A stretch of 64,000 bases of DNA from Minisyncoccia bacterium (GTDB lineage: Bacteria > Patescibacteriota > Minisyncoccia > Phycocordibacterales > UBA918): the NCBI GenBank assembly GCA_041738755.1, contig JBGSPE010000005.1:79872-143871 (forward strand), given 5' to 3'. Below the pieces are notes generated by a model, which was given only the letters and a program-made list of their open reading frames with translations, did no database searches and was not told the origin of the DNA. The translations under genes and the position numbers were made by a program. Of this stretch, positions 10,864 through 52,610 are shown one piece after another. Each line of letters starts with the position of its first letter. The first letter of the stretch is position 1.

Positions 10864-12774
10864 ATGAGTGTTTCTAAGCATGCAATTATCGTAGTGCTGC
10901 TAACTGTGGTTGGATTAACGGCGGTGCTACTTTCTTTTCTGCCGCAGTTTGTTAGTGCGCTTAATGTCCAGCGTTATAGTGACCTTATTAGTGACTCTGC
11001 ACCGACAGCTTCATCTAATCACACACTTCGGTTTGTGGTTGACACCGACGTAAATCCTGGAGGTGTGATAGAAATTACTCCACCTGAAGGGTTTGAAACG
11101 GTAGCTGATATTGGCTTTGATGTCAGGAATGTAGAGCTAACGGTTGATGGTACGACAAGAGTTGCGGGAGCAAGTGCGGGACCGGGAGTAGATCAGGTAG
11201 AGATTACACCGGGAACTCCGGGACAAATTCGCTACACCCTGGCACCTGACTCTGGTATTGGTAGCGGCGCAGAGATAGAGTTAAAAATTGGTAATCATAC
11301 CAGCAATGCAATCGGTCCCTCGTTAGAATTTAGTAGTACGACTGGTACCACTACCATCCCGGGAGATGTTGAGCCAATTATCAATAGTGCTGACACTGGT
11401 ACACATGAAGTAAAAATGGAGATTTACGATGGCGGACTCGGCTTGGTTGCCAGTGCGGGATTTCTGATTGCTGTCGTTGACCGAGTAGAAATTGCTGGTG
11501 TTGATACAACTGAAGAAGTGCCGCCATTTCGGTTTAATGGAGCGCCGACCTCTACGATTGGAGGAACTACACTCAGCGTTGAATTATCACTTGAAACTGA
11601 TGAGTTTGCGGTCTGTAGATTTTCAACAACCCCAGGTGTCAGTTACTTTGCAATGCCCAATCAGTTTGCTAATACAGGGATAATCTTCCATACCGTAGTG
11701 GTGGCTGTAACTCCGGCTACCTTCTATACCTTCTACGTTCGATGTATTGATGATGAAGGAAACTTCAATGTTGACGATTTCGAGATTGCGTTTGCTGTTA
11801 ATGAGACGCCAACCGGTGAGTCAAATGAAGAAGGTAACGTAGATGGTGACGGAACGGGGACTGGTAATCAAGGTAGTGGATCAGGTGGTGGCGGTGGTGG
11901 AACTTCCGGTTCGTCTGATGGTGAAGCACCAACGACGGGTGGAACTTCAGGTGGCGGTGGTTCAGGAGGTGGTGGCGGTGGTGGATCTGGAGGTACACGA
12001 GGAAACAGTGGCGGTGGAGGATTTGAATCAACTGACGCTCCGTTTCAAAGCGGAGATGGGCGAGTCGTTATCACCGGTTTGGCGTTCCCAAATAGTAACG
12101 TCACGTTTCTGGTCGATGGGAAAATTGCACAGTCTGTTCGGGCGGGAGGCAGTGGTGCCTATTCAGTGACGCTCGATGAGATTGCTCGCGGCGCGTATAC
12201 CTTCGGCGTGTATGCTACCGGAGCTGATGATGTGAAATCTTCCACATTTAGTACATCATTTACTGTCACTGGCGCCCGTACTTCGGCACTTTCTAATATT
12301 AATATTCCACCTTCAATTAGAGCTACTCCCGATCCGGTTGATCCTGGACAAGTGCTAACGCTTTCAGGATATGCAATTGCAAACTCAACCCTCACTATTC
12401 AAAATAGTCGTCTTCGTACATCTACCTCAGCAAGTGTACAAGCGACGGCGGATGGAAGTGGACGCTGGTCAACTACACTACAAACAAATAATTTTACGAA
12501 TGGCACATATCAAGTTCGAGCTCGGGCAGCGCAAGAGGGCGGAGCAACAACAAATTTTTCTGAATATACATTTTATGGCGTAGGTGAAGCAGCTGATGTT
12601 CCTATCAATGCCGATCTTAATACTGACGGAAGAATCAACTTGACTGACTTTTCTATTTTGCTGTTCTGGTGGAATAGTAACGGTGGAGATTCAGACCCAC
12701 CAGCTGATATTAACCGTGATGGAAGAGTCACGTTGACTGACTTTTCCATCCTACTGTTTAACTGGACTGGGTAA
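10864..12774 (+). CDS. Secreted protein with the family-A head domain, a Gly-rich linker, Ig-like domains and a C-terminal type-I dockerin
   Basis: The N-terminus is homologous to the products of 8096 and 46865. The C-terminus is a duplicated dockerin segment, DLNTDGRINLTDFSILLFWW ... DINRDGRVTLTDFSILLFNW, whose D1/N3/D5/G6/D12 residues match the dockerin Ca-binding loop. Confidence 0.75.
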   Translation: MSVSKHAIIVVLLTVVGLTAVLLSFLPQFVSALNVQRYSDLISDSAPTASSNHTLRFVVDTDVNPGGVIEITPPEGFETVADIGFDVRNVELTVDGTTRVAGASAGPGVDQVEITPGTPGQIRYTLAPDSGIGSGAEIELKIGNHTSNAIGPSLEFSSTTGTTTIPGDVEPIINSADTGTHEVKMEIYDGGLGLVASAGFLIAVVDRVEIAGVDTTEEVPPFRFNGAPTSTIGGTTLSVELSLETDEFAVCRFSTTPGVSYFAMPNQFANTGIIFHTVVVAVTPATFYTFYVRCIDDEGNFNVDDFEIAFAVNETPTGESNEEGNVDGDGTGTGNQGSGSGGGGGGTSGSSDGEAPTTGGTSGGGGSGGGGGGGSGGTRGNSGGGGFESTDAPFQSGDGRVVITGLAFPNSNVTFLVDGKIAQSVRAGGSGAYSVTLDEIARGAYTFGVYATGADDVKSSTFSTSFTVTGARTSALSNINIPPSIRATPDPVDPGQVLTLSGYAIANSTLTIQNSRLRTSTSASVQATADGSGRWSTTLQTNNFTNGTYQVRARAAQEGGATTNFSEYTFYGVGEAADVPINADLNTDGRINLTDFSILLFWWNSNGGDSDPPADINRDGRVTLTDFSILLFNWTG

Positions 12775-12844
12775 ATTTATTGACAATGTATTCATGTGGG
12801 TAACCTCATACATATACATTACAAACACCGTATACTATTAGAGT

Positions 12845-13345
12845 ATGTCCTTTTTACAAAGACTAAAAAGTCGCGGAGTCAGAAGTGGGGAAGCCTCACT
12901 ACAGTCTGATGCAGAAGAAACTGCAGCAGACAAAGTTGCTCAGCTGCACGTTGATGTGTACCAAACAGATCAACTTATTGTTGTATATGCCCAGTCAGCT
13001 GGAGCAGACATGAACGATGTGCACGTTTCGATTGAAGGTGACGCAGACATTGTACTGATTGAGGGTAAGCGAATTCGACCCGAGTACATTGTTTTCCCTA
13101 AAAAAATCATCAAGGGTTCATTTGTTGCAAGCGAGTGCGTGTGGGGCGATTTTTATCGCCGGATTATTTTGCCTGAGAGTGTAAATATTGATAAAGCAGA
13201 AGCAAAAATAAAAAATGGAGTTTTAATACTTATCCTACCTTTATTGAAGTCAAGTGAAAAAGAAAAAGTAAAATTAAAAGTGATGGGAACACGACCGCAA
13301 GCACGATCTCAAGCGCAGGCACGACCCCAACCACGACGTTCTTAA
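12845..13345 (+). CDS. Hsp20/alpha-crystallin small heat-shock protein
   Basis: Alpha-crystallin-domain pattern LHVDVYQTDQ...IEG...ILPESVNIDKAEAKIKNGVLILILP, with a basic C-terminal tail. Confidence 0.7.
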   Translation: MSFLQRLKSRGVRSGEASLQSDAEETAADKVAQLHVDVYQTDQLIVVYAQSAGADMNDVHVSIEGDADIVLIEGKRIRPEYIVFPKKIIKGSFVASECVWGDFYRRIILPESVNIDKAEAKIKNGVLILILPLLKSSEKEKVKLKVMGTRPQARSQAQARPQPRRS

Positions 13346-13356
13346 GTTCTTCATTT

Positions 13357-14898
13357 ATGTCAAAATTTTTCCATACTACAAACTTAAGCCTCTCCTTAAA
13401 GTTTTTTGCGATTGTCTTGGTATGGTTCTGTGTGTCGGTCTCATTTACATATGCAGCAGATCTTTCACTTTCACCAAGTAGTGGTTCGTATTCAGCTGGA
13501 CAGACATTTACCACAACTGTCCGAGTTTCACCCAATGGAGCTAATGTTAATGCAGTTGAAGCATCACTCCGGTTTAATCCAGCGGTGTTGTCAGTCGTGA
13601 GTGTGAGTAAAGGTCCGGCATTTTCATTGTGGACGACTGAGCCAACATTTTCAAACAGTGCCGGGACAATCCAATTTGGCGGTGGTAGCCCAGCTCCATT
13701 TTCAGCCGCTTCAAATCTTTTAACTATTACATTTAGAACGGTAGCTCCTGGTTCGGGCACCGTGTCATTCACCGGCTCATCGGTATTAGCCGCCGATGGT
13801 CGAGGGACTGATGTGTTTGAAAATGCAGCACCAGCTACTTTTGCAGTAGCGGCTGGAGCGGCACCAACACCTACCCCAACTCCTACTCCTACTCCTACAC
13901 CAACACCTCCTGCCGAAACGGGTAATAGTGGAGATGAGGCAATTATTTTCGGAGACCCACCACGACCACCAGAAATTGGTTCACCAATCTTCCTTGACCC
14001 AAACACCTGGTACAGCGACACAGAGGGAGTGTTTACGTGGACGCTACCATTTGATGTAAGTGCTCTGGCTGTGGAGATTACTGACAATGCTGAAAATCGT
14101 CCTGAGTTGAATCGAGCTGCAATTGTTGACCCACCGACTGAAGAATTTTTCATTACAAAAGATTTGATAAAAGATGGTGTTCAGTATATTAGTATCAATT
14201 ATCAGAATCAGGTTGGATGGGGCGCGCCAACGAATCGGAAGCTTCAGGTTGACACAACCGCTCCTGAACCATTTGCTATCAATGTACGAGCTGGTACATC
14301 TCCGAGCTCATTCCCACTCCTTAACTTTGAGGCGCTCGATGTTACTTCAGGAATTAACTTCTATGAAATGACGGTAGCGGACCGAGAACCAATTCGAATC
14401 ACTCCAGATGAAGCAAAGCTTGGGTACTTACTGACAGATCTTGAAGACGGTACCTATACAGTAAAGGTGGTAGCAACTGACATGGCTGGTAATATTCGCG
14501 AAAGTAGTGTCGCGGTACTTATTACAGCCGGTTGGATAAAACCGCTCGAGACACTTGAGGAAGGATCGATCTTTGATTTCCTCACTGCCAAAAATCTTCT
14601 CATCTTCTTCCTCTTCGTTGTGATTGCCTTGCAGATGGTATACATGTGGTACACGAGAAAGCATACAAGGGAGCGAGAAGAAAAATTACGTCGAGAAACG
14701 CGTGAAATTCAAGATCAGATGGAGAAAATATTCTCAGCGCTCCGTGATGAAATTTATGACCAAATTATCTCTATCACCAAACGTAAACGACTTTCACCAA
14801 AAGAAAAAGAAGCCATCGAAGGTCTAACACAAGCACTCGAAGTGTCTGAGACCTTGATAGAAAAGGAAATCAATGATGTGAAAACGATTTTGAAGTAA
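13357..14898 (+). CDS. Membrane-anchored cohesin-domain protein with a PT linker, an Ig-like domain, a TM and a cytoplasmic coiled-coil tail
   Basis: The cohesin-like domain spans about nt 13453-13866 (LSLSPSSGSYSAGQTFTTTVRVSPNGANVNAVEASLRFNPAVLSVVSV...). It is followed by a (TP)n linker, an Ig-like DGTYTVKVVATDMAGN segment, a TM (LLIFFLFVVIALQMVYMW) and a coiled coil ending IEKEINDVKTILK. Confidence 0.65.
   Translation: MSKFFHTTNLSLSLKFFAIVLVWFCVSVSFTYAADLSLSPSSGSYSAGQTFTTTVRVSPNGANVNAVEASLRFNPAVLSVVSVSKGPAFSLWTTEPTFSNSAGTIQFGGGSPAPFSAASNLLTITFRTVAPGSGTVSFTGSSVLAADGRGTDVFENAAPATFAVAAGAAPTPTPTPTPTPTPTPPAETGNSGDEAIIFGDPPRPPEIGSPIFLDPNTWYSDTEGVFTWTLPFDVSALAVEITDNAENRPELNRAAIVDPPTEEFFITKDLIKDGVQYISINYQNQVGWGAPTNRKLQVDTTAPEPFAINVRAGTSPSSFPLLNFEALDVTSGINFYEMTVADREPIRITPDEAKLGYLLTDLEDGTYTVKVVATDMAGNIRESSVAVLITAGWIKPLETLEEGSIFDFLTAKNLLIFFLFVVIALQMVYMWYTRKHTREREEKLRRETREIQDQMEKIFSALRDEIYDQIISITKRKRLSPKEKEAIEGLTQALEVSETLIEKEINDVKTILK
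13864..13911 (+). repeat. Coding microsatellite (ACNCCN)n encoding a (Thr-Pro)n linker
   Basis: acacctaccccaactcctactcctactcctacaccaacacctcc. Confidence 0.8.
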
Positions 14899-14928
14899 AA
14901 CCACTAATTAATCCCCATAAAACAAGCG

Positions 14929-14960
14929 TATCGCGTAAGTCTTCAGTGACTTACGCGATA
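14929..14960 (+). terminator. 13-bp perfect stem hairpin (tatcgcgtaagtc / gacttacgcgata, loop ttcagt) after gene 13357-14898; terminator-like but lacks a clean T-run
   Basis: Read directly from the sequence. An AT-rich stretch with tataat and an AGAGG RBS follows, ahead of the GTG start at 15005. Confidence 0.45.
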
Positions 14961-15004
14961 TACTTATAATTGCCACTACTTATAGCTGGCTTAGAGGTTT
15001 TTCT

Positions 15005-39688: not shown

Positions 39689-41011
39689 ATGGCCAAACCG
39701 CTTATCGTCTGTCGGGATCTTTCGATTATTTACAACAAAGGTAAATCGAATGAGTTCCGAGCCTTGCAGGGGGTTAATACTGATATTTTTGAGGGAGAGT
39801 ATATTATTCTCTTTGGTGCGTCGGGCTCCGGGAAGTCTACGTTGATGTATTCCATCCAAGGATCACTTCCTCCTGGAGACGGAACCTTACTCATTCAAGG
39901 TGATGATATTTATTCGTACCCTCCCGCTGAGCGTGTCTATTTCCAACGGTATGTGATGGGGATTATTTTCCAATCGTTTAACTTGATTGGATCTTTGTCG
40001 GTCCTTGATAACGTAGCGTTACCGATGATTTTCTGTAACGTCGAGAAGACGGCTAGAAATAGACGAGCACAGTCACTCCTTGATCGGTTTGGAGTAGGGC
40101 ATGTCTCACACAAAATCCCTGCCATGCTTTCAGGAGGTCAGCAACAACGTGTATCAGTGGCTCGTTCGATGGTTAATGATCCAAGAATTCTTTTAGCCGA
40201 TGAGCCGACCGGTAACCTCGACTCGGTTTCAACGCAGCAGGTAATGGACAAAATTGACGAGATTAACACCTTTGATAGGCGAACCATTATCATGGTGTCG
40301 CACAATGCTGCGCACTTGAGTTACGCGCACCGGGTATATTATTTGAAAGACGGATTTATTGTACGTGAAGTTGTTAATCCGCAGCGTAAACAAATTAAGC
40401 CAGTACGAGAAGGGGAGACGATTGTAACCGAGCTTGAACAGCTCGCTCGACTCTTTCCGTATGACTCCGTAGAAACCCTGCGGGTTAAGAGTATGGTTAA
40501 TTTTTTGACGCAAGATTATACCTTCGACCAGATTATGAGACTTGAGCACGCCATGTCACTCTTCTTGCAGGGAAAGATTGATCGGGACGCAATGATAAAA
40601 AGTTTAGTACTACCACTTGAGCGCGGTGGAGTAGAGATTAATGAAACTGAAGCTCGGCGAATGGCATCAGTGGCTGAAAAGATGATTAGTCATGCCGATG
40701 ATATTCGTCGCTTCAGAGCTCGAAAAGATAATAACAATATCTTCTTTACCCAGCACAAATTGGCCGAGCGACTGCGAGACCACCTGACACATTTGTATCG
40801 AATCAAACTCTCCAAAGATCAGGACGAAAATCTCGTCGAGATGATAGCTGACCGAGTTACGGGGGTGATTGAAGAAGATGAGTTTAATATGCGTCTTATG
40901 CAAGGTATCAAAGCCGGTGGGTTAGGTTTCTCTGATAAAGAAGCGGATGAACTGACACGATATTTTGAGAAGATAATCGCTCAAGGAGTTGATGTGAGTT
41001 ACAAGAGTTAG
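39689..41011 (+). CDS. ABC transporter ATP-binding protein (MacB/LolD/FtsE-like) with an unusual C-terminal extension of roughly 200 aa
   Basis: Walker A GASGSGKST, signature LSGGQQQRVSVARS and Walker B ILLADEPTG are present. The core domain ends near aa 230 and the protein is 440 aa. Confidence 0.8.
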   Translation: MAKPLIVCRDLSIIYNKGKSNEFRALQGVNTDIFEGEYIILFGASGSGKSTLMYSIQGSLPPGDGTLLIQGDDIYSYPPAERVYFQRYVMGIIFQSFNLIGSLSVLDNVALPMIFCNVEKTARNRRAQSLLDRFGVGHVSHKIPAMLSGGQQQRVSVARSMVNDPRILLADEPTGNLDSVSTQQVMDKIDEINTFDRRTIIMVSHNAAHLSYAHRVYYLKDGFIVREVVNPQRKQIKPVREGETIVTELEQLARLFPYDSVETLRVKSMVNFLTQDYTFDQIMRLEHAMSLFLQGKIDRDAMIKSLVLPLERGGVEINETEARRMASVAEKMISHADDIRRFRARKDNNNIFFTQHKLAERLRDHLTHLYRIKLSKDQDENLVEMIADRVTGVIEEDEFNMRLMQGIKAGGLGFSDKEADELTRYFEKIIAQGVDVSYKS

Positions 41012-41021
41012 TGATTAGTAT

Positions 41022-42236
41022 ATGAGAATACAAGATCTAGCCCAGCTTTCAACCAGAATGTTTAAAACGAATCCACTCCGTACGTGGCTGACAATTTTAG
41101 GTATGGGAGTAGGTACAGGGGCGGTGGTGGTTTTGGTGGGGCTAGGGTTTGGCTTGCAGCAGATTATTCTTGAACAGATTGTGTTTGGAGAAACACTGCT
41201 TTCTTTGGGAGTTTCTTCAACTGGAGCGCAAGGTCTCTCACTGACGCCTGATACGGTTACCCAGTTTGAAAGTAATCCGGCGGTTCTTGATGCTGCGCCG
41301 CTCGCTCGCTTCCCAGCACTTATAACCTATAAGGGATTAACGGGAAATGTATTCGTACAGGGGGTTGAGCCGCCCTACCTACGGTACGCAGGAGTGACAG
41401 CTGAAGTTGGAGAGGTCTTCTTGGAAGAGGATGCTGGTGATACTAGTAGCATTATGTTGTCGCCAGCCGTTCTTAAGCTGTTCGGGATTGAGGATACAGA
41501 AATTGCAAATTTTATTGGAGAGCGCGTTTCGATTCGTCTGCTTGTACCGGCTGATGATGGAACAGAAAATGTTAACGAGATTATTATTGATAAAGAATAC
41601 ACCGTAAAGGGAGTCACCAAAGAACAAGGGGTGTTAAACGCCATGATGATGCTTCCAGAATTACGTAATTACGTTGGTATTGAAGAATACGAACGAATTC
41701 AAGTACGGGTTGATACCAATGAAAACTTGCCGCTCGTTGAAGAGCAGTTAATTGAAGAAGGCTATCGTGTGACGGCGCTTTCAAAGACGGTTGAACAAGC
41801 ATCACAAATTTTCCAAGGAATTCAGGCCGTGCTGGCGACGTTTGGCGGTATAGCGTTACTCGTATCTGCGATTGGTATGTTCAACACCATGACTGTGACA
41901 TTGCTTGAGCGAACGAAAGAGATTGGAATTATGCGTACCATTGGTGCGTCACCAAACGACGTTAAGTACCTCTTCGTATCTGAGTCAGTAGTTGTAGGGT
42001 TTATGGGGGGAGTGACTGGTATCGCTATGGGGGTCACCTTTGGAGTAGCGATAAATATTTTCCTCAACGTGCTGGCTGGGCAGTTTGGTGGACAGGCAGT
42101 ATCACTCTTTTCATTTCCCCTTAACTTTTTGCTCTTCATCGCAATCTTTTCGGCTGGGGTAGGGTACCTGACGGGTATTTTTCCAGCCAGACGAGCTTCA
42201 ACCCTCAATCCACTTGATGCGATTAGGTATGAATAA
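41022..42236 (+). CDS. FtsX/MacB-type ABC permease with TM1, a large extracytoplasmic domain and three C-terminal TMs
   Basis: The topology, and C-terminal TM helices with conserved Gly residues, are typical of the FtsX-like permease family. It is adjacent to the ABC ATPase, 11 nt downstream. Confidence 0.7.
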   Translation: MRIQDLAQLSTRMFKTNPLRTWLTILGMGVGTGAVVVLVGLGFGLQQIILEQIVFGETLLSLGVSSTGAQGLSLTPDTVTQFESNPAVLDAAPLARFPALITYKGLTGNVFVQGVEPPYLRYAGVTAEVGEVFLEEDAGDTSSIMLSPAVLKLFGIEDTEIANFIGERVSIRLLVPADDGTENVNEIIIDKEYTVKGVTKEQGVLNAMMMLPELRNYVGIEEYERIQVRVDTNENLPLVEEQLIEEGYRVTALSKTVEQASQIFQGIQAVLATFGGIALLVSAIGMFNTMTVTLLERTKEIGIMRTIGASPNDVKYLFVSESVVVGFMGGVTGIAMGVTFGVAINIFLNVLAGQFGGQAVSLFSFPLNFLLFIAIFSAGVGYLTGIFPARRASTLNPLDAIRYE

Positions 42237-42325: not shown

Positions 42326-44206
42326 ATGTTGTACAACAAAACGGAGCTTCCAAATTTAATGAACACTGCAGGAAAGATAACCATTACTACCGCTATAGCC
42401 GGCGTTGTCGTGTTTGCCTTTGCTCTTATGTTTGACGTCGGTACTACCGAACTGAGTCGAGTATCAGCTCAAACAGCGTCTACTACACTGACGGTGCTCA
42501 ATACACCTCCAGCATTTGTGGTGAATGCCTATGAGGTAATTGAGTCATCAACCACCACTCCAACCAACTCCGGTGACGTCGTTCAGTGGGCAGCTGTAGC
42601 AAACGATAGTAACGGTGCCCCATACTTCCTCCTTGTCTGTGACACCAACGCGACACCAACCGCTCGAGCTGCTGCTGATATCGGTTCACTTGGGACAAAC
42701 CCTCCAGTTTGTAGTTCAACTAGTACCGTACAGTGGGGTGTGTCAGCCGCTACTCCAAGCGATGCCTTGGCGACAGTTTCAACTACCACAACCGAGGGCT
42801 TTGCTGAGTCCAACAACTGGTACGCCTGGGTATGTGACGATGATCCTTTCAATCCGCGATGTAATAACATTCCCGTTCAAGGCTTCAGTGCCACCAACTC
42901 CTCTCCGTTTTATGTAAACCACCGACCAGTATTCTCTGCCTTTGGGAACAACGGTCCAGTTGACCCGGGAGGAACTCTCACCTTCACTTCGACTTCATCA
43001 GATCCGGACGTAGTGACTAGCCCCGACACCATCAGACTAGTCGTGTGTTCATCACCAACTGAATACAACATCACTACCAATAACTGTAACTCTGGATTTG
43101 GTATTGCTTCAAGCACCGTCGGCGTAACTACCGACGCCTCAGCCCAAGCGGTTATGGCGGCTATCATGCAAGACGATGACTACCCAGCCTACGGATTTAT
43201 TGTTGACCAACACGGACATGAAGCTGCAGCCAACGGAATTAATGAAGATTTCACCGTAAACAACGTCGCGCCAGTGGTACTTGGTGGTGACATCATTCTC
43301 AACGATGTTGATGATTTACTGCTAACTGTAGAAGGTGGTGAGACTACTGGATTCACACTAGAGTTCACCGTCACCGATGCAAACAGTTGTCAAAACGCTC
43401 TGGGTGGAGCTGAAATTACTGGTTATGCTGCCTCAGTGTTCCGTAGCAGTATTGGAAGTAGTACCTGCAATGGTCTAACTGGAGTCTATAATCCAAACAA
43501 CTGTTACCCAAGTAACGCTGCTACTACAACTTGGAACCTCTCATGTACACCATCTGCCTGTGGCGGTCCTACGACTAATAACATTGAGTACTCATGTACC
43601 TTCCCACTGTGGTTTGTGGCTGACCCGACTGACGAAGCAAACACTGATATTCCTGCAATTCTCGGTAATGATAGTTGGTCAGCTGCAGTTGGAGGGATTG
43701 ACGATAACGCCTTGATCGGAGTCATCGCTACCTCAACCGGTGTCAAAAACCTCATCAGTTTGACGGCCCTCGACCTTCTTTCTGCTGAAATTCCCTACGG
43801 CTCACTTGAACCTGGCGAAAACACTGGGACACTTGATGCAACTACTATCGTTCGTTCGGTAGGAAACACTGGTCTTGACCAAGAGTTGCGAGGAACGTCT
43901 ATGTGTGGAGGATTTACTGTACTTGTACCTTGTGCTCCAAACCCTGCAGCAACCATTCCTGAAGACCAACAACAGTTCTCAACTACAAGTCTGGCCTACA
44001 ATAGTCCACTTGCCTTATCACTTTCTTCAACAACAGATACTGAGCTTGAGTTAAACGTTGCTAAGTCAATCAGTACCTCAACACCGAACTCAGGTACTAC
44101 CTACTGGGGAATCGAGGTACCACTTTCTATCACGCTCGCCGGGGCATACTCTGGACTTAACACGTTCACTGCGGTGACAGCTGAAGCGGCTGACTGGGGT
44201 TACTAG
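42326..44206 (+). CDS. Secreted Cys-rich surface protein whose C-terminal domain is homologous to the C-terminus of the giant protein
   Basis: N-terminal signal anchor present. The C-terminal ~250 aa (FVADPTDE ... IPYGSL ... NTGLDQE ... DQQQFSTTSLAYNS ... TYWGIEVP) align with the giant's C-terminus (FHADPTDT ... IDYGAL ... EQQKFATSTFNYS ... VYWGIAIP). Confidence 0.6.
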   Translation: MLYNKTELPNLMNTAGKITITTAIAGVVVFAFALMFDVGTTELSRVSAQTASTTLTVLNTPPAFVVNAYEVIESSTTTPTNSGDVVQWAAVANDSNGAPYFLLVCDTNATPTARAAADIGSLGTNPPVCSSTSTVQWGVSAATPSDALATVSTTTTEGFAESNNWYAWVCDDDPFNPRCNNIPVQGFSATNSSPFYVNHRPVFSAFGNNGPVDPGGTLTFTSTSSDPDVVTSPDTIRLVVCSSPTEYNITTNNCNSGFGIASSTVGVTTDASAQAVMAAIMQDDDYPAYGFIVDQHGHEAAANGINEDFTVNNVAPVVLGGDIILNDVDDLLLTVEGGETTGFTLEFTVTDANSCQNALGGAEITGYAASVFRSSIGSSTCNGLTGVYNPNNCYPSNAATTTWNLSCTPSACGGPTTNNIEYSCTFPLWFVADPTDEANTDIPAILGNDSWSAAVGGIDDNALIGVIATSTGVKNLISLTALDLLSAEIPYGSLEPGENTGTLDATTIVRSVGNTGLDQELRGTSMCGGFTVLVPCAPNPAATIPEDQQQFSTTSLAYNSPLALSLSSTTDTELELNVAKSISTSTPNSGTTYWGIEVPLSITLAGAYSGLNTFTAVTAEAADWGY

Positions 44207-44239
44207 AAGAACATATATTAGGACACATAAATAGTCGAC

Positions 44240-44278
44240 AATAACCACTGTTATCCAGCAGTGGTTATTGATTTTTTA
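44240..44278 (+). terminator. Intrinsic terminator: 11-bp stem (aataaccactg / cagtggttatt), 8-nt loop, then gatttttt
   Basis: Read directly from the sequence, immediately after the stop at 44206. Confidence 0.8.
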
Positions 44279-45267: not shown

Positions 45268-46371
45268 ATGCCCTTATTACTAATCATTGTACTTTTAGGC
45301 GCAACGGCTGTATTTCCTTCGACACTCACTGCACAGTCATTTGCGACCACTACGTTGAGCCTCAGTATCTGCGGTAACTTAATTGTAGATGATGGCGAGC
45401 AGTGTGATATTCCGGGTGAGACGGGTCAGTACAGTCAAACCATTGTCGGTCGACAATGCACCGCCGAATGTAACTTTGGACCGTATTGTGGTGATGGTAT
45501 TTTACAGACTGTCTTTGGCGAGACGTGTGATGATGGTAACAACGAAAACGGTGACTTCTGTTCCGCTATCTGTGCTATAGAGCCAGCTGGTTCCGGTGGT
45601 GGAGGGTCTTCCGGCGGAGGGTCTGGCGGCGGTGGAGGGAGTAATCGTGAGCAAGGTGAGACTCAGGTAAATATCCGCGGTCGTGCCTATCCATCAAGAA
45701 CAATAAACTTTTTACTTGATTCTGAATCGGTTGGTTCGGTTCAATCAAATAGTACAGGAGCTTTTGAATTCACTACTGAAGCTTCGCCTGGTACAGCAAC
45801 CCTCGGAATTTGGGCAAATGACAGTTCTGGTACCCGCTCTATCACGTTGAATAACACCTTCGATGTAACCCAAGGAGCAATCACTAATATTAATGGTGTC
45901 GTACTGCCGCCAACGATTAGAATCGCTAATCAAAATGTTGATCCTGGGACACCGGTGATTGTCTCTGGGCAATCAGTTCCAAATGCTACCGTTGAATTAA
46001 ACGTTGACAATAGTGCAATCATTGAGACAACCACGGCCGGAGCCAACGGACAGTGGAGTATTACCTTGGCTGGCGGTCGTTTGTCAGTAGCAGCCCACAC
46101 CTTACGAGCGCGTACCATAACCGGCACAGCTCCGACTACGATACAATCGAGTTTTAGTAATTCACTACAGGTGTTTGTTGGTGTTGATGGTCAAGCTAGT
46201 ACACCGTCTGACTTGAGTCGTGATGGTCGGGTAAATCTTACCGACTTCTCAATACTTATTTTTTGGTGGCAGACAAATGGAGGAGATTCTGACCCGCCGG
46301 CTGATATCAATGGCAACGGAAGAGTTAGTCTCGAAGACTTCTCGATCCTTTTGTTTAATTGGTCGGGTTAA
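45268..46371 (+). CDS. Secreted protein with Myxococcus-type Cys-rich repeats, a Gly-rich linker, Ig-like domains and a C-terminal dockerin
   Basis: CGNLIVDDGEQCD and CGDGILQTVFGETCDDGNNENGDFCSAIC match the CGDG...ECDDGN...GDGCS repeat. The C-terminal DLSRDGRVNLTDFSILIFWW ... DINGNGRVSLEDFSILLFNW is a duplicated dockerin segment. Confidence 0.75.
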   Translation: MPLLLIIVLLGATAVFPSTLTAQSFATTTLSLSICGNLIVDDGEQCDIPGETGQYSQTIVGRQCTAECNFGPYCGDGILQTVFGETCDDGNNENGDFCSAICAIEPAGSGGGGSSGGGSGGGGGSNREQGETQVNIRGRAYPSRTINFLLDSESVGSVQSNSTGAFEFTTEASPGTATLGIWANDSSGTRSITLNNTFDVTQGAITNINGVVLPPTIRIANQNVDPGTPVIVSGQSVPNATVELNVDNSAIIETTTAGANGQWSITLAGGRLSVAAHTLRARTITGTAPTTIQSSFSNSLQVFVGVDGQASTPSDLSRDGRVNLTDFSILIFWWQTNGGDSDPPADINGNGRVSLEDFSILLFNWSG

Positions 46372-46864
46372 AATTTGTATTTTTAGTCATGATTTAGTTC
46401 TCGGTTCCAGGAATCTACTTTAGGAAAGAAGCAGATTCGGAACTGACCTAGATTTAAAAAGCATTTGCGATTATTAAATCGGAAATGCCCTTGTGGTGAA
46501 ATTCAGAATACCCCAGGGTACTTTCTCTTGATTTCCTCGAAATCAATTCACCTTGTAGTCGTTTTTCTCCTACTCACATTTAAATTGGTCAGGATAAATC
46601 ATCGCCGCTGCGATGATTTTTGTGTATAAGTGTAAAATTATTTTTTTGTACTCGAGTACAATGAATACGTATCTGCACGGGAGGTAATCAATTAGTATTA
46701 CTGCAGTTGAGTTATATCAGCTGGGCCCTTCAGCCGAGGGTTACTGCGCAGATGTACTTACAGAATATTTCAAATGAGGGAGTGGAGACCCTCTTTTGTA
46801 CGAAGTAATTCGTCCGTCACAGTCTTCGGGCTTCTACGGTCTGTAAGGTAATACAACGTAGAGT

Positions 46865-48022
46865 ATGTTTAGAGCGTCCAACGCGTTCTCACTACTCCAA
46901 GCTCTCGCAGCGATTGTTGGCTTCGCGATCATTTTATGGTCACTTGGTCTTCCATCACTCCGCTTCGCGGAAGCTGCAAATGTCATCTCGTTTAGCGACA
47001 CCCTATCGGACGCAAATCCGAATACGGCCGCTAATCACACAATTTCTTTCGCAACCCCTTCTGGTCTCAGTGCTGGTGATACTATCACCATCAACTTTGA
47101 AGCAGGAGAGTTCGGAGGACTAGATAGTCTCGACGACGGAGACTTTGACCTCGCAATCGATGGTGTCGATCAAGATCTAGCAGGTGCTGCTGCCGGGGCA
47201 ACCTGGGGCGTTACAGCTGCTGGAGATGTTGTCACTATTGAAAGCGGTACCGAAGCAATTGGGAGCGGTGCTACCGTCACTATTGAAATTGGTACCAACG
47301 CAACGCATCAGTCAAATGGTGTAAACCAAATCATTAACCCACTTACCCCTACGTCATATTCACTTGACTTAGTATTTGGTAACGACGGTACAAATAATGA
47401 TACAGGCAGCACTTTGGTTGCTATCGTTGACGATGTTACGGTCACTGCTTCAGTTGATACTATCTTCTCGTTCACTGTTGATGGAGTTGTAGCTACCACA
47501 TCGGTTAATACAGCTGACACAACAGGTGGCGATACCACTGCAACCACAATTCCATTTGGAACTTTGGAAGCAGATACCGCGAGCACTGCTGCGCAGGCAC
47601 TACAAGTACAAACAAATGCCGCCAACGGCTTTGTGGTTACCGTAGAAACTAACCAGCAACTAACTTCTGGTAACGGTGCGGATATTGATGGCTTCTCTAA
47701 CGGAGCCTTCACTGGCACACCGATATTGTGGGAAAGTCCAACAGCATCGCCTGGATCAGAAAATTCATACGGTCACTGGGGCCTATCATCAACTGATACC
47801 TCGCTGACAGATGGATTGAATGACTTCTTTGACGGTGGTGACAATTTTGTCTCTGCTTCAACTACACCAGTTGAAGTCTTCCGACATGATGGTCCAACTG
47901 ATGGTTCACCTGCGAATGAAGGTAATACCACAGTAATCTACAAGGTCGAAATCTCTGCTTTGCAAGAAGCAGCGAGCGACTACACCGCTACACTGACATA
48001 TGTAGCAACCCCAGTGTTCTAA
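46865..48022 (+). CDS. Secreted family-A surface protein with the head domain and a WxL-like C-terminus (paralog of the product of 8096)
   Basis: SDTLSDANPNTAANHTISF ... INFEAGEF at the N-terminus; FGTL ... YGHWGLSSTD ... YTATLTYVATPVF at the C-terminus. Confidence 0.55.
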   Translation: MFRASNAFSLLQALAAIVGFAIILWSLGLPSLRFAEAANVISFSDTLSDANPNTAANHTISFATPSGLSAGDTITINFEAGEFGGLDSLDDGDFDLAIDGVDQDLAGAAAGATWGVTAAGDVVTIESGTEAIGSGATVTIEIGTNATHQSNGVNQIINPLTPTSYSLDLVFGNDGTNNDTGSTLVAIVDDVTVTASVDTIFSFTVDGVVATTSVNTADTTGGDTTATTIPFGTLEADTASTAAQALQVQTNAANGFVVTVETNQQLTSGNGADIDGFSNGAFTGTPILWESPTASPGSENSYGHWGLSSTDTSLTDGLNDFFDGGDNFVSASTTPVEVFRHDGPTDGSPANEGNTTVIYKVEISALQEAASDYTATLTYVATPVF

Positions 48023-48056: not shown

Positions 48057-48090
48057 AAAAACCCTATCTCCCACCACGAGAAGGGTTTTT
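48057..48090 (+). terminator. A/T-flanked hairpin (aaaaccct ... agggtttttt); bidirectional terminator-like
   Basis: Lies 35 nt after the stop at 48022. A second hairpin, ttgtatgt-cggacgcccaac-acatacaa, follows at 48089-48116. Confidence 0.5.
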
Positions 48091-48295
48091 TGTATGTCGG
48101 ACGCCCAACATACAAGACCCTTCAGTCGTGGCGGGCCGGTCTACGACCGCTGTACACCTTGTCGCTGATTTATTCGCAAGCTCTTAAATCACCTGGCAAG
48201 GTGAAGGTGAATTTTTCTAAAAGAAAAAGAGAGGCTGCCCTGGGGTACTTGCGAAAATCTCCCAGATTTTCTCACGAGAAGGGTTTTTTGTATGT
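48075..48295 (+). repeat. Exact 23-bp direct repeat, cacgagaagggttttttgtatgt, at 48075-48097 and 48273-48295
   Basis: Two identical copies about 198 bp apart in the 48023-48342 intergenic region. Each overlaps a hairpin plus T-run. Confidence 0.7.
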
Positions 48296-48342
48296 GAACA
48301 GCTTGCGTAAAAAGTATTACTGAACACTGGTATACTAAGCGG

Positions 48343-49401
48343 ATGATGAGTTATAAAACGGCTATTTTTGCTGTTACCCTGGTAGGTAATTTTTTGCTGT
48401 TCACAACTTCAGCGTCAGCCGCATCACTCTATATCGACCCTGCGGTGTCAAACGTGCTTCGTGGTGACACTATTAATCTCTTGGTGAGACTAGACACCGA
48501 TGAAGCTGCCGGTGAATGTGTAAATGCTGTTGATGGGGTCATAACCTACTCTGAAAACGTTGACCTCGTAGATGTCTCAACCGGAGATTCTATTTTTAGT
48601 ATTTGGATTGAACAACCCGTTATTGATAAAGCCAACCGTACGGTCACGTTCGCTGGCGGAATTCCTAATGGCTACTGCGGACGTGTTGATGGTGACCCGA
48701 GACTCACCAATACCATTATCAAGATGGTGTTCCGTTCACCGGGTTTTAGTATTGGCGGCGGTGATACGGGGACTACTGCCCGAGTTGATTTTGATCCGGC
48801 AACAACTGCATATTTAAATGATGGTCAAGGTACGACTGCCACACTAACTACGTACGGGGCACAAATCGAACTCGCTACAGGTCCGGGATTACAGATTGAT
48901 GACAAATGGCGAGATGAAGTCGCGGCTGATACCGTTCCACCGGCACAATTCAGTATTGCGCTTGAGAAGGACAGAGTCGCCTTTGGGGGTAAATACTTTA
49001 TCGTCTTTAATACTACTGACAAACAAACTGGTATTGATCAATATCAGGTTATTGAAGAACCACTCTCAAAATTAGGCTCATTTGAGTGGGGGAGAGCAGA
49101 CGCACCATGGGTAACAACTCGTAGTCCGTACGTACTTGAGGATCAGTCGCTCAACAGCATTATTCGGGTGAAAGCAATTGATAAGGCGGGTAATGAATAC
49201 ATCGCAACCTTGATACCTGATGAGTCACTCCAGTCTTACTCGTTGACACAGATTATTGTCTTCGGCGCAGCGGTGGTAATTGGGTTGTTACTGCTTGGAA
49301 TTGCCGTTACCTTTGTACGGAATCTGCGACGTCGCAAAAAAGCCAGTCCTGAACAATTGACAGACGATGACACTAATGAAATACATCATGAAAATAACTA
49401 A
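48343..49401 (+). CDS. Cohesin-domain protein with a C-terminal TM anchor and a short charged tail
   Basis: Signal peptide present. The cohesin-like domain spans about 48421-48790 (SLYIDPAVSNVLRGDTINLLVRLDTDEAAGECVNAVDGVITYSENVDLVDVSTGDSIFSIW). TM is IIVFGAAVVIGLLLLGIAVTFV. Confidence 0.55.
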   Translation: MMSYKTAIFAVTLVGNFLLFTTSASAASLYIDPAVSNVLRGDTINLLVRLDTDEAAGECVNAVDGVITYSENVDLVDVSTGDSIFSIWIEQPVIDKANRTVTFAGGIPNGYCGRVDGDPRLTNTIIKMVFRSPGFSIGGGDTGTTARVDFDPATTAYLNDGQGTTATLTTYGAQIELATGPGLQIDDKWRDEVAADTVPPAQFSIALEKDRVAFGGKYFIVFNTTDKQTGIDQYQVIEEPLSKLGSFEWGRADAPWVTTRSPYVLEDQSLNSIIRVKAIDKAGNEYIATLIPDESLQSYSLTQIIVFGAAVVIGLLLLGIAVTFVRNLRRRKKASPEQLTDDDTNEIHHENN

Positions 49402-51145
49402 TACCTTAGAAACAGGAGTGACGCGCGTAGTCATACCAGTACTTCTAGGGCTCTTGTTTTTCGTAGCTACAACCACTTTGGCAGCAGCCGCTACCTTATC
49501 ACTATCACCGAGTACAGGAGTCTATACCTCTAACAGTACGTTCACCGTAAGGGTAAATGTAAATTCCTCCGGACAATCTATCAATGCTGCCGAAGGAACA
49601 CTCAGTTTTAATCCACGAGAACTTTCTGTAGTTAGTGTCACCCGCTCTGGTTCAATCTTTAACTTATGGGTAGCTGAACCATCATTTTCAAACAGTGCTG
49701 GTACAGTGAGCTTTAGTGGCGGTTCGCCATCAGGCTATACTGGATCAGCAGGAAATATCATGTCGATTACCTTTCGTGCGATTGGCTCAGGCGCTGCTCG
49801 AGTGAACTTTTCTAACGGCTCAGTACTCGCAAATGATGGCCGAGGTTCAAATGTGTTAACTAACATGAGTGGTGGTACCTACACGATTCAGGCTGCTAGC
49901 ACAGCACCACCACAAGAAGTTATCGTTGAATATGTTGCCCCGGCTAATACACCTGGCGCACCATCTATTACCTCAAGTACACACGCTGACCCTGATGCTT
50001 GGCATACCAATAAAACTGCAACGCTCAACTGGTCCGTTCCAGCTGGAGTGACGGGAGTGCGGACACTCCTAAATAGTAGTCCAAGCTCAGTCCCTTCAAG
50101 AGTGTACGAAACACCAATTAGCAGCATTACGCTTGAGGACCTCGATGAAGGAGTTTCGTATTTCCATTTACAGTTTCGTAACGAGGATGGTTGGGGTAGG
50201 GTGAGTAGTTACCGGTTAGCAGTCGATAGTAGTAAACCATCAGCAATAGAAATTGTTCAGCCTGAAGATGCTGACAACACGAATCCAGAGCAAAAACTAC
50301 AAGTTACCGTTACCGATGATGGATCTGAGGTAAAGCGATTCATGGTACGAGTTGATAATGACGAACCGTATGAAGTAATCCGTGAAGCTGTCACCGACCT
50401 CCTTTCCCTCGGCACATTGTCACCTGGATACCATACCATTATCATTGAGGCGTTCGACGAGGCAGGTAATAGCATAATCGGAACCTACTCGCTCACTATT
50501 GAATCGTTTGAAAAACCAACCTTTACCGAGTATCCGAGTGAGATTAATGAAGAAGTAATTCCAGTCATTAAAGGTATGACGCGTCCAAACGCTACGGTTA
50601 TGGTCACGGTTACAAAACTCGGAAGTGAACCAGCTTCCTACGAAATACAGAGTTCCGACAGTGGAGAGTTCGTCTTCATTCCAGAAGGTCGATTCTCAAC
50701 CGGGGTATACGAATTTACCGCCTACGCAATTGACCAGTATGGAGCCCAGAGTGAGGTTTCAGAACCGGTCCGAGTAGCTGTCCAACAACCAGGCTTTGTG
50801 CGCGTAGGCTCATTTATCGTTAGCATTCTTTCGGTTATAATTCCTTTAGTTGCACTTTCAGCACTCCTCATCATTGGTTCAGGGTACCTCTTGGCATATC
50901 TTCGTCGCTTTAGAGGTAAGGTCCGGACCGAATCAATCGAAGCACTTGATATATTGCATCGAGAATTTACAGCCCTACAAGCTGAACTACGACATCAGGA
51001 ATCCTTGCTTACTGAGTCACGAAAAACAAAAAAACTTACCAAGGCTGAATCTGAAATGATTCAAGTCATTGATACTGCACTCCAGACATCACAACGAAAG
51101 GTGGAAAAAGAGATTACCGACGTCACTAACTTAACTAAAAATTAA
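49367..51145 (+). CDS. Membrane-anchored cohesin-domain protein, paralog of the product of 13357. The start may be the ATG at 49388.
   Basis: The cohesin-like domain spans about 49490-49865 (ATLSLSPSTGVYTSNSTFTVRVNVNSSGQSINAAEGTLSFNPRELSVVSV...). An Ig-like domain, a TM and a coiled-coil tail ending VEKEITDVTNLTKN follow. The annotated start overlaps the upstream stop at 49401 in another frame. Confidence 0.65.
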   Translation: MTLMKYIMKITNTLETGVTRVVIPVLLGLLFFVATTTLAAAATLSLSPSTGVYTSNSTFTVRVNVNSSGQSINAAEGTLSFNPRELSVVSVTRSGSIFNLWVAEPSFSNSAGTVSFSGGSPSGYTGSAGNIMSITFRAIGSGAARVNFSNGSVLANDGRGSNVLTNMSGGTYTIQAASTAPPQEVIVEYVAPANTPGAPSITSSTHADPDAWHTNKTATLNWSVPAGVTGVRTLLNSSPSSVPSRVYETPISSITLEDLDEGVSYFHLQFRNEDGWGRVSSYRLAVDSSKPSAIEIVQPEDADNTNPEQKLQVTVTDDGSEVKRFMVRVDNDEPYEVIREAVTDLLSLGTLSPGYHTIIIEAFDEAGNSIIGTYSLTIESFEKPTFTEYPSEINEEVIPVIKGMTRPNATVMVTVTKLGSEPASYEIQSSDSGEFVFIPEGRFSTGVYEFTAYAIDQYGAQSEVSEPVRVAVQQPGFVRVGSFIVSILSVIIPLVALSALLIIGSGYLLAYLRRFRGKVRTESIEALDILHREFTALQAELRHQESLLTESRKTKKLTKAESEMIQVIDTALQTSQRKVEKEITDVTNLTKN

Positions 51146-51160
51146 TCCCGCAAGACGCAT

Positions 51161-51847
51161 ATGAAAGCCCTACTGAACCAAAATAAAAATACTATTAAAG
51201 GAATTATTGTCATTCTCTTACTCGTTGCTGCTCTCTGGTACATATCGCTGCTTATTGTTAAAGAGCGGACACAAGATCTCATGTCGCTCATTAAAGTCCA
51301 GGTGGCGGAGCAAGGGGCACTCCTTACCAGTATCGCTGAAACAACGGCGCGAAATGGTGCCGACCAGGTGACTGAATCAGTTGTTCGAGACTGTACAGTA
51401 GAAGAACGGACCACCTTCGATACGTTACTTGGACAGCTTGACGCTGGGTTGCCACGAGCTGATTTGGTTGAGCTTGAACGGTTATTTGGCCGGTGTGGAA
51501 GTTTTTATGCTGAACGAAAGCTCGTGATGTCGTCACGATTAGACCGTGAAATTGAAGTCTATGAAAATTATGTAAATCAACTTGCGGAACTCACCAACAA
51601 TCGAGAACTTGAAGAATATAATCTTGATACCTGGAAACAGCTAGCTGAACAAGAAAAAATGCTTAGTACTGATTTCTCTAAATTAGTAGATTTACAAGAC
51701 AATATTATTTCTACCTTACTCGAAGGGAAAACGCGTGACTCAGAGGAAATTCAATCCATTCTCCGTGAAGTAAAAGACACAAACGACAACCTTATTATTA
51801 CGAATGCTCAAACAGCAACGATTAGAAGTGAGTTGATCACTCTGTAA
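51161..51847 (+). CDS. N-terminally anchored coiled-coil membrane protein of unknown function
   Basis: TM IIVILLLVAALWYISLLIV, followed by a helical region. Confidence 0.4.
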   Translation: MKALLNQNKNTIKGIIVILLLVAALWYISLLIVKERTQDLMSLIKVQVAEQGALLTSIAETTARNGADQVTESVVRDCTVEERTTFDTLLGQLDAGLPRADLVELERLFGRCGSFYAERKLVMSSRLDREIEVYENYVNQLAELTNNRELEEYNLDTWKQLAEQEKMLSTDFSKLVDLQDNIISTLLEGKTRDSEEIQSILREVKDTNDNLIITNAQTATIRSELITL

Positions 51848-51857
51848 CTCACGACAC

Positions 51858-52610
51858 ATGTCATACATACGTAACTGGTATCACGTTTTGGTTTCAAAAT
51901 TTCGAAACCGCCGTCGTGGTACGGTGCGAACGATGTTTTCTTTGTTAAGTATTTTTACGCTCCTTGGTGCTGCGGTATTAACGGGAACAGAAGCTTCATA
52001 CGTACGACTGGTCGCTAACACTTCAACCGTAGAGGCAGGACAGCGATTTTCTATAGATATATTTGCGAGTGCACATGTACCAGTAAATGCAGTAGATATA
52101 ACACTGCGCTTTGACAAAAATACTGTCGAGGTACTCGAAGTTGATCGTGGACAATCTGTACTCACTATTTGGACAGAAGACCCAATAATCACTGGTGATA
52201 CCGTAATTTTACGAGGAGGTACTTTCAGGCGGGGGTTTATTGGAGAACATAAGATAGCCACTATCGATCTTATGGCAAAACAAACTGGTCAAAGCGAATT
52301 TCGTACTGAAGACGTAGTGTTATTAGCTGGTGATGGGAGAGGTACACCAGTTAAGCTTACAGAATCTGATACTGACAGAGTAAGTTTGTTTATATACGAC
52401 GAAAATACGGTACCGGAAAACATTGGGGTTGACGTGAAAGTCATTGTGCTGACAGATGTGGACGGGGATGGTACGGTGACAATCAAGGACATCAGTACGT
52501 TTATGTCATCCTGGGCACGACAAGACACGGTCTATGACTTCAATAGCGATGGTAAAATGACCTTCAAAGACTTCTCAATCCTCCTGGCTGACTTTGTGTT
52601 TAAAACGTAA
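51858..52610 (+). CDS. Small adaptor-like protein with an N-terminal cohesin-like domain and a C-terminal dockerin
   Basis: Cohesin-like domain at about 51993-52353 (SYVRLVANTSTVEAGQRFSIDIFASAHVPVNAVDITLRFDKNTVEVLEVDRG...). Dockerin at about 52446-52607 (DVDGDGTVTIKDISTFMSSW ... DFNSDGKMTFKDFSILLADF). Confidence 0.6.
   Translation: MSYIRNWYHVLVSKFRNRRRGTVRTMFSLLSIFTLLGAAVLTGTEASYVRLVANTSTVEAGQRFSIDIFASAHVPVNAVDITLRFDKNTVEVLEVDRGQSVLTIWTEDPIITGDTVILRGGTFRRGFIGEHKIATIDLMAKQTGQSEFRTEDVVLLAGDGRGTPVKLTESDTDRVSLFIYDENTVPENIGVDVKVIVLTDVDGDGTVTIKDISTFMSSWARQDTVYDFNSDGKMTFKDFSILLADFVFKT

Follow-up and report, generated by a model that had tools for sequence, protein, structure and literature searches.

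The stretch of DNA analysed here (hereafter the window) comprises 64,000 nucleotides (nt) from a Minisyncoccia bacterium that belongs to the Candidate Phyla Radiation (CPR), positions 79,872 to 143,871 of contig JBGSPE010000005.1 in assembly GCA_041738755.1, and carries genes for secreted and membrane proteins that contain cohesin and dockerin modules. Its plus-strand genes run unbroken from 8 to 63 kb and, according to the list of open reading frames (ORFs), are mostly separated by short gaps. Three proteins of this run (10864, 45268 and 51858; ORFs are named by their first nucleotide, Table 1) end in a duplicated dockerin, and four (13357, 48343, 49367 and 51858) carry an N-terminal cohesin-like module. 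Because 51858 has one cohesin and one dockerin, these are seven modules in six genes, and not the seven genes counted in an earlier note that had proposed a non-cellulosomal cohesin–dockerin surface assembly for this locus.

Table 1. Features of the window, with the six module-carrying genes first; positions within proteins are in amino acids (aa), topology and domain limits are predicted, and Ig stands for immunoglobulin.
Coordinates (nt)	Strand	Feature	Length (aa)	Layout
10864–12774	+	Secreted dockerin cargo 1	636	Signal peptide; pilin-like head ~30–205; fn3-like domain 238–312; Gly-rich linker 317–389; two Ig domains 396–573 (AlphaFold domain map; Pfam Big_6, Big_13); duplicated dockerin 583–636 (nt ~12610–12771)
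13357–14898	+	Membrane cohesin anchor 1	513	Signal peptide; cohesin ~34–170; Pro-Thr linker; Ig-like domains; membrane helix 414–432; charged cytoplasmic tail 433–513, last residues EKEINDVKTILK
45268–46371	+	Secreted dockerin cargo 2	367	Signal peptide; Cys-rich repeats; Gly-rich linker; Ig domains; dockerin 314–367, same type as in 10864
48343–49401	+	Divergent membrane cohesin anchor	352	Cohesin-like module ~24–185; membrane helix 304–322; short basic tail
49367–51145	+	Membrane cohesin anchor 2	592	Cohesin ~40–175; Ig-like domains (Big_13, 37.6 bits); membrane helix 484–502; conserved cytoplasmic tail of ~90 aa, last residues EKEITDVTNLTKN
51858–52610	+	Protein with both modules	250	Hydrophobic segment 23–41; cohesin ~45–180; divergent, asymmetric dockerin 199–248
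8096–9172	+	Pam-like pilin candidate, family A	358	Signal peptide; N-terminal β domain; conserved VAIIDDVLVTAIV segment; C-terminal domain
46865–48022	+	Second Pam-like pilin candidate	385	44% identical to 8096
54360–60512	+	Giant protein with family A C-terminal domain	2050	Family A C-terminal domain alone at the C terminus, without the conserved VAIVDDV segment before it
9298–10383	+	Chaperone-like membrane protein		Signal peptide; β domains; C-terminal membrane helices
44299–45264	+	Chaperone-like paralogue, directly 5' of 45268		C-terminal membrane helix 292–310
60520–61551		Chaperone-like paralogue of 9298 (BLASTP)
61472–62767		Chaperone-like paralogue of 9298 (BLASTP)
12845–13345	+	HSP20 small heat-shock protein, between 10864 and 13357		Pfam HSP20, 36 bits
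15005–38095	+	Giant surface protein	7696	N-terminal hydrophobic anchor; Pfam DUF2341, Gly_rich_2 and Ig only
39689–42236	+	MacB/FtsX-type ATP-binding cassette (ABC) transporter, ATPase and permease		Pfam ABC_tran, MacB_PCD, FtsX
42326–44206		Protein sharing a C-terminal domain with 15005	626	Cys-containing C-terminal domain
51161–51847	+	N-terminally anchored protein, between 49367 and 51858	228	Membrane helix 15–33
4302–4787		UmuD-like S24 peptidase
4818–5996		Glycoside hydrolase family 18 (GH18) protein
6522–7778		Y-family polymerase		IMS, IMS_C, DUF4113
14928–14961		Hairpin after 13357
44239–44270		Hairpin after 42326
46596–46619		Hairpin after 45268

The dockerins of 10864, 45268 and 51858 each contain two calcium-binding loops, spaced 27–31 residues apart, and all six loops follow the pattern D-x-[DN]-x-[DN]-G-x-[IV]-x-x-x-[DE], which is succeeded by a helix-forming stretch in a duplicated segment of ~22 residues. 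The pattern has no match in the other 25 of the 28 translated ORFs of the window. With the gathering cut-off of Pfam Dockerin_1 (PF00404) at 22.9 bits, 10864 (32.8 bits) and 45268 (26.8 bits) pass and 51858 (22.4 bits) falls slightly below; the latter additionally matches Pfam EF-hand_1, and Dockerin_1 is matched by 64 of its 68 orthologues at E ≤ 0.01 (best 2.7e-6). The three duplicated dockerins described in the earlier note are present, in its ORFs and with all six loop motifs. When a profile of the CPR dockerin segments is searched against the Protein Data Bank (PDB), solved cellulosomal dockerins come out on top with both repeats aligned (2y3n_B, E 2e-7, and further 4fl4_A, 1daq and 2mte), and EF-hand proteins rank below them, mostly by way of a single loop. 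In the AlphaFold model of 51858 (predicted local distance difference test, pLDDT, 70.6), two helices (residues 209–221 and 236–248) each begin inside the preceding loop with pLDDT values of ~71–83; as modelled, this helix placement is the F-hand arrangement of dockerins. Over the 62 orthologues of 10864, no other block of the protein is as well conserved as the dockerin (mean top-residue frequency 0.88–0.90).

In cellulosomes, the duplicated dockerin attaches tightly to one face of its cohesin when Ca2+ is present, and dockerins that are internally symmetric can bind in two orientations. The specificity of cellulosomal dockerins is set by loop positions 10–11 together with residues on the following helix. 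Within the dockerins of 10864 and 45268, one repeat is almost a copy of the other (…LTDFSILLFWW and …LTDFSILLFNW), and the dockerins of the two proteins are likewise nearly identical when compared with one another. The repeats of 51858 are unlike each other, with I-K and F-K at loop positions 10–11 in place of the L-T of the other two proteins. Since both these positions and the symmetry differ, the sequences point to two specificity classes, one for 10864 and 45268 and the other for 51858.

Of the four cohesin-like modules, those of 13357 (32.9 bits) and 49367 (31.0 bits) pass the gathering cut-off of Pfam Cohesin (PF00963, 24.1 bits), that of 51858 (15.3 bits) stays below it and that of 48343 has no match to this family. 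The Pfam comparison suggested in the earlier note thus yields two proteins above the cut-off for each of the two families. The assignment of 48343 and 51858, for which that note had claimed cohesin-like modules as well, holds by family-level evidence and not by their own Pfam scores. The four N-terminal modules are mutually similar (BLASTP E 3e-5 to 3e-47, the latter for 13357 against 49367), and hidden Markov models (HMMs) of the family cohesins cross-match among them. In profile–profile alignment with hhalign, the 48343 family matches the cohesin of the 49367 family with a probability of 99.8% (E 2.7e-30), and the 51858 family matches the 49367 family with 97.7% (E 1.9e-12). Pfam Cohesin itself has matches at E ≤ 0.01 among their relatives, in 16 of the 65 homologues found for 48343 and in 27 of the 68 orthologues found for 51858. 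Few blocks of the 49367 family are as well conserved as its cohesin (mean top-residue frequency 0.78–0.87).

A Foldseek search with the model of 51858 returns cohesins at all PDB ranks from 1 to 41, with TM-scores of up to 0.80 on the target and E-values down to 8e-9. The matches include 2vo8 and 2jh2 of Clostridium perfringens (TM-score 0.80) and 2xdh of Archaeoglobus fulgidus. The model thus predicts the nine-stranded jelly-roll β-sandwich of cohesins for 51858, and homology predicts the same fold for the other three modules. In the window, the modules are confined to these genes: when family HMMs of the cohesin, dockerin and cytoplasmic tail were run against all stop-to-stop ORFs of at least 40 aa in six frames of the whole window, the cohesin HMMs matched the four named ORFs only, the dockerin HMMs the three named ORFs only and the tail HMM 49367 and 13357 only. 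Neither by Pfam nor by this six-frame search do the giant proteins of 7696 and 2050 aa contain a cohesin or dockerin.

The cohesin carriers 13357, 48343 and 49367 (the database start of the last lies 7 codons downstream of the ORF start used here) each begin with a signal-like segment. Near the C terminus they have a single strong hydrophobic helix, in line with the C-terminal membrane anchoring proposed in the earlier note, and this helix is followed by Arg/Lys-rich sequence. The layout suggests that the cohesin lies outside and the tail in the cytoplasm, and the three proteins are accordingly predicted to be type-I membrane proteins whose cohesins face outward. A PDB sequence search with 13357 gave no meaningful match. 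Homology links the tail of 13357 to that of 49367 (BLASTP E 1.6e-9; the tail HMM of the 49367 family finds 13357 with E 3e-9), which agrees with the shared tail noticed earlier and described there as a coiled coil; the two tails contain many residues that are invariant over 43 orthologues and terminate in EKEI(N/T)DV. Comparable ends are found in distant relatives, namely KEIKDI (P0380, P0384), NIKDV (P0487) and ENIKEI (L005). The genes 48343 and 49367 overlap by 35 nt, and in other CPR genomes (P0380, P0384, P0429, P0487) proteins of the two types form a single fused ORF of 735–901 aa, in which the membrane helix is retained internally along with another signal-like segment.

The protein 51858, which unites a cohesin with a dockerin, has no C-terminal membrane helix. 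The earlier note likened it to an adaptor scaffoldin; it does contain both modules, but it may be an N-terminally anchored membrane protein instead of a free adaptor. Its hydrophobic segment near the N terminus may or may not be cleaved.

The dockerin-bearing proteins 10864 and 45268 share a stalk, consisting of the Gly-rich linker, Big_6, Big_13 and dockerin, that spans the C-terminal 248 aa with 40% identity, and differ in their heads. The head of 10864 is a β-sandwich modelled at pLDDT > 90 and is homologous to the N-terminal domain of the pilin candidate 46865 (BLASTP E 2e-7); a Foldseek search with the 10864 model gave generic tandem-Ig matches only, with an archaeal S-layer protein first, and is uninformative for the head. 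The head of 45268 consists of Cys-rich repeats (DUF4215, 32.6 bits; myxo_disulf_rpt, 44.4 bits). In Pfam and NCBIfam scans, no glycoside hydrolase, catalytic or carbohydrate-binding domain was found in any dockerin-bearing protein, and the statement of the earlier note that the passenger domains are not glycoside hydrolases agrees with what they are: Big_6 and Big_13, DUF4215 with myxo_disulf_rpt, and a head in common with 46865.

Cohesins and dockerins are the hallmark modules of cellulosomes, and a GH18 gene lies upstream of the cluster, so a small cellulosome-like complex of enzymes that degrades polysaccharides has to be considered. It is extremely improbable. The GH18 protein has no dockerin, the dockerin proteins have no catalytic or carbohydrate-binding domain, and anchoring is through membrane helices and not through domains of S-layer homology (SLH) or through sortase. 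As no dockerin is attached to an enzyme and there is never more than one cohesin per protein, the assembly is not a cellulosome: neither an enzyme or carbohydrate-binding module (CBM) with a dockerin nor a multi-cohesin scaffoldin was found, and this candidate was ruled out.

The families to which these proteins belong have at least 1010 (49367), 863 (51858) and 718 (10864) homologues. Those listed share about 56–83% identity across the three families (~62–70% for 49367), and the names of the database matches include Candidatus Nomurabacteria, Kaiserbacteria, Pacebacteria and Parcubacteria, which assigns the window to the Parcubacteria within the CPR (Patescibacteria). The genes are part of a cluster of ~55 kb that is fully collinear in the complete Ca. 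Nomurabacteria genome CP060229.1 (994,774 bp; loci L004 and L006). The loci L002, L003 and L004 have a common order of pilin-like, chaperone-like, small membrane protein, dockerin, HSP20, cohesin anchor and giant genes, and both in these three loci and in the window the dockerin gene lies two genes 5' of the cohesin-anchor gene; the locus tags RL538_189/203/205 and RLZZ480_82/95 of two further assemblies are consistent with the same spacing. In a distant genome (L005, 25–29% identity), the arrangement is reduced to a pair, in which a gene for a 617 aa dockerin protein lies directly 5' of a gene for a 580 aa protein with a cohesin, a membrane helix and a tail. The pair is flanked by translation genes and a histidine kinase, and there is no pilin-like gene in the 12 kb around it. 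These gene linkages and the fusion are the main argument for plugs and sockets working together.

We consider it probable that the six genes encode a non-cellulosomal, membrane-anchored cohesin–dockerin system for surface display in a Parcubacteria-type CPR bacterium. The anchors 13357 and 49367 and the divergent 48343 would each hold a cohesin socket off the membrane on Ig-like stalks. The two cargo proteins 10864 and 45268 would be exported by Sec, plug their dockerins in a Ca-dependent manner into the sockets of 13357 and 49367, the anchors with tails, whose genes lie a short way downstream, and so stay on the surface. In this arrangement, the cargo would present different heads, one pilin-like (10864) and one Cys-rich (45268), on a common stalk. 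The divergent 48343 and 51858 would constitute a second tier, where 51858 either docks on one of the anchors and presents a further socket or is itself held in the membrane. The cytoplasmic tails of 13357 and 49367 would link the anchors to an intracellular partner. The display system would be part of the ~55 kb envelope cluster, together with the pilin candidates, chaperone-like proteins, giants and ABC transporter, with a role in attachment or cell–cell interaction. The identities of the modules, the topology signals, the conservation and the gene order are established by the data; that cohesins and dockerins bind one another, which partners they choose, that binding depends on Ca and that it serves attachment is what we infer. 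Of the earlier proposal of a non-cellulosomal surface assembly, the modules, the lack of an enzyme with a dockerin, the single-pass anchors and the conserved cytoplasmic tail stand as described, and the pairing is the part that is deduced. Neither of the two outcomes that the earlier note had named as speaking against it was observed.

Several findings weigh against this reading. There are four sockets for three plugs. On their own sequences, 48343 and 51858 each fall under the Pfam cut-offs. A profile of the 49367 family, searched against the sequences in the PDB, finds no solved cohesin and returns just an Ig repeat of SiiE, which places it in a divergent branch of cohesins. In the AlphaFold model of 10864 (pLDDT 72.9 overall), the dockerin appears as strands with pLDDT < 50 and is uninformative at this low confidence; the two-helix dockerin fold is thus seen in the model of 51858 alone. 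The unequal numbers, the distance of the 49367 profile from solved cohesins and the poorly folded dockerin of the 10864 model would also be expected if these were true homologues of cohesins and dockerins that do not pair. The sandwiches would then bind host or environmental ligands or act as stalks, and the dockerin-like segments would be Ca-binding stabilizers or binders of something else. Single cohesin- or dockerin-like modules without known partners occur in many genomes, according to the passage of PMC9012536 that cites a review on this point. However, genes for dockerins and cohesins lie next to each other even in genomes that are far apart, down to the minimal two-gene pair, both modules rank with the best-conserved parts of the proteins that carry them and 51858 unites both of them. 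We regard the absence of pairing as unlikely.

A second question is how the display system relates to the pilin-like genes of the cluster. Pili of CPR bacteria have been described by cryo-electron microscopy as fibres held together by donor-strand exchange between the linkers and C-terminal domains of two-domain pilins, with PapD/FimC-like chaperones that are anchored in the membrane (PamC and PamD) and a tip subunit, and in Ca. Mycosynbacter amalyticus the anchor was proposed to be PamR, a one-piece membrane protein with fibronectin type III domains (10.64898/2026.03.03.709456). This preprint makes no mention of cohesin, dockerin, WxL or ABC transporters. In the window, the family A proteins 8096 and 46865 match the NCBIfam model CPR_Pam_pilin_C (NF058581) with 24.2 bits each (E 3e-5), below its cut-off of 55. 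The model is matched by six of the eight family A members at E ≤ 0.01 (best 6.5e-8, all at 24–33 bits and thus under the cut-off), and it is the only family that family A proteins match. This suggests that family A is a distant relative of the Pam pilins, though not a member by the curated rule. The Pam pilus has so far been reported mainly in Saccharimonadia and Microgenomatia, and the family A set may be its Parcubacteria version. PDB sequence searches with 46865 and with the chaperone-like 9298 gave no meaningful matches. The giant 54360, by its sequence, resembles a tip adhesin or tip subunit.

The cohesin–dockerin joint could then be, as a narrower version of the display reading, what tethers a Pam-like donor-strand pilus to the membrane. 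Here, 10864 would serve as base or terminator of a fibre of 8096 and 46865 that is tipped by 54360, and would plug into 13357, which would replace the one-piece PamR. In addition to the pilin matches of family A, there are four paralogues that resemble PamC and PamD in layout, having a signal peptide and, at the C terminus, a membrane helix, and one of them, 61472, passes the cut-off of Pfam WxLIP_PGBD (29.1 bits against 27.3; 9298 reaches 19.6 bits). The alignment shows that 10864 has the pilin-type head, akin to that of 46865, and lacks the C-terminal domain of family A, whereas 54360 has that domain alone. Furthermore, residues 211–235 of 10864 are of low confidence and unstructured in the model, yet no part of the N-terminal half is more conserved than the stretch that they overlap. 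Together, these features suggest for 10864 a possible role as the end piece that attaches a fibre to a cohesin anchor. Against this, the scores with the Pam model are far under the cut-off, the sequence of 10864 past ‘VDT’ departs from the pilin linker, which leaves the donor strand only putative, 45268 has no pilin-like head, and the minimal dockerin–cohesin pair of L005 stands without a nearby pilin gene and is therefore independent of a pilus. Because Pam membership fails the curated threshold and because of this pair, we take the tether to be possible but not likely. A more elaborate proposal, in which the joint is a detachable coupling between the cell and a Pam-like donor-strand pilus or giant-adhesin apparatus, with 10864 as the base subunit on the membrane anchors and with attachment controlled from inside by the tails, and perhaps by the co-conserved HSP20 and the ABC transporter, strikes us as decidedly unlikely.

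Compared with what is known, the display reading has several precedents. Non-cellulosomal cohesins and dockerins occur in all three domains of life, and binding was demonstrated for some of them (Peer et al. 2009 and related work, as cited in PMC9012536), with pairs that bind known from archaea and C. perfringens. A surface or cell–cell role was proposed for cohesin and dockerin proteins of ANME archaea (PMC9012536). In the cultured CPR bacterium Southlakia, an envelope protein with a dockerin domain is essential (PMC10633639). Like the pairs of A. fulgidus, C. perfringens and ANME archaea, the proteins of the window carry single modules and are unrelated to cellulose degradation, and it is the structures from the first two organisms (2vo8, 2jh2, 2xdh) that the cohesin fold of 51858 matches best. 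The non-cellulosomal pairs of C. perfringens are complexes of toxins and glycosidases. Unlike all these pairs, the cohesin carriers described here are type-I membrane proteins with a conserved tail, the cargo is stalked and non-enzymatic, and the genes have a set place in a cluster of ~55 kb that shows 60–70% identity across many CPR genomes.

Similar to OlpA/OlpC and SdbA of Clostridium thermocellum, a cell-bound protein with one cohesin would hold a dockerin-tagged partner on the surface, and 51858 has a cohesin and a dockerin as do the ScaA/ScaB adaptors. In contrast to the clostridial scaffoldins, there is no SLH domain or sortase signal, no multi-cohesin scaffoldin, no CBM and no enzyme, and the similarity is low (Pfam scores of 22–33 bits). 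The likeness to the Pam system comprises the same superphylum, the weak pilin matches of family A, the PamC/PamD-like paralogues and the tip-like giant 54360, while the differences are the scores under the curated cut-off and the one-piece anchor PamR of Mycosynbacter. The cluster also shares with the WxL loci of Firmicutes the combination of secreted β-rich proteins with membrane proteins that have a C-terminal helix, and the score of 61472 points to a possible kinship of Pam-type chaperones with the WxL-interacting proteins of Firmicutes. WxL loci consist of WxL proteins and DUF916/WxL-interacting proteins, whereas family A has no WxL match: the Pfam WxL domain was tried on the C-terminal domains of family A and does not match them even at E ≤ 10. 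WxL loci are not known to hold cohesins or dockerins.

No cohesin–dockerin system was found described for CPR, Patescibacteria, Parcubacteria or Saccharibacteria in a full-text search of the literature. In public pipelines, some of the CPR proteins already bear the label ‘Cohesin domain’ or ‘dockerin type I domain-containing protein’. What appears to be new are the single-cohesin type-I membrane anchors with a conserved cytoplasmic tail, the stalked non-enzymatic cargo and the protein that carries a cohesin together with a dockerin, and the fixed place of all these in a conserved ~55 kb cluster with Pam-like pilus genes and giants. CPR bacteria may make up a large part of bacterial diversity and, as far as they are known, spend their lives attached to other cells, and most of the molecules that make up their surface lack annotation. 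The cluster described here, which is conserved at 60–70% identity in hundreds of Parcubacteria genomes, contains a plug-and-socket pair of a well-understood, high-affinity type, and binding tests of recombinant modules with Ca and EDTA could map surface attachments in organisms that cannot yet be grown. If the link to Pam were true, the Pam system would extend to another CPR class and the tethering of its fibre would be explained. Were the detachable coupling true, it would be the first pilus anchored by cohesin and dockerin, and a new kind of tether for ultra-small bacteria that have a wall and no outer membrane. The orthogonal dockerin types and single-cohesin membrane anchors might also serve as parts for surface display.

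The remaining genes of the cluster include two that share a domain. The giant 15005 and the 626 aa protein 42326 have in common a Cys-containing C-terminal domain of ~250 aa (…YWGI.VP…, E 2e-17). Kinship of this domain with the C-terminal domain of family A was rejected (hhalign probability 0.2%). The ABC transporter pair is found at the same place in CP060229.1, and the C-terminal extension of ~215 aa in its ATPase (39689) has no family match. The small protein 51161 also occupies the same position in CP060229.1; it has no significant family match and, judging from its composition, is probably helical and charged. HSP20 is the best-conserved gene of the cluster (79–89% identity, at the same position in L002 and L003). 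It has neither a signal peptide nor a membrane helix, and a cytoplasmic holdase within an operon of secreted and giant proteins is oddly placed.

Promoter and terminator scans of the window gave counts that are not above the expectation from shuffled sequence. Strong hairpins with stems of 10–14 bp follow 13357, 42326 and 45268 and may be transcript ends. Upstream of the cluster, a CAP-domain protein and the GH18 protein are encoded near the UmuD-like peptidase and Y-family polymerase genes, and the same genes flank the cluster in L002. In the low-GC CPR genome L005 (5894–9501), the cohesin gene overlaps at its end with a gene for a PAS histidine kinase, after which comes a response regulator. 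A further locus (L001, PANR01000036.1), with a 73%-identical cohesin anchor and a giant gene, was deposited as ‘Legionellaceae bacterium’; since the content of the contig is of CPR type, this title is probably a binning error.

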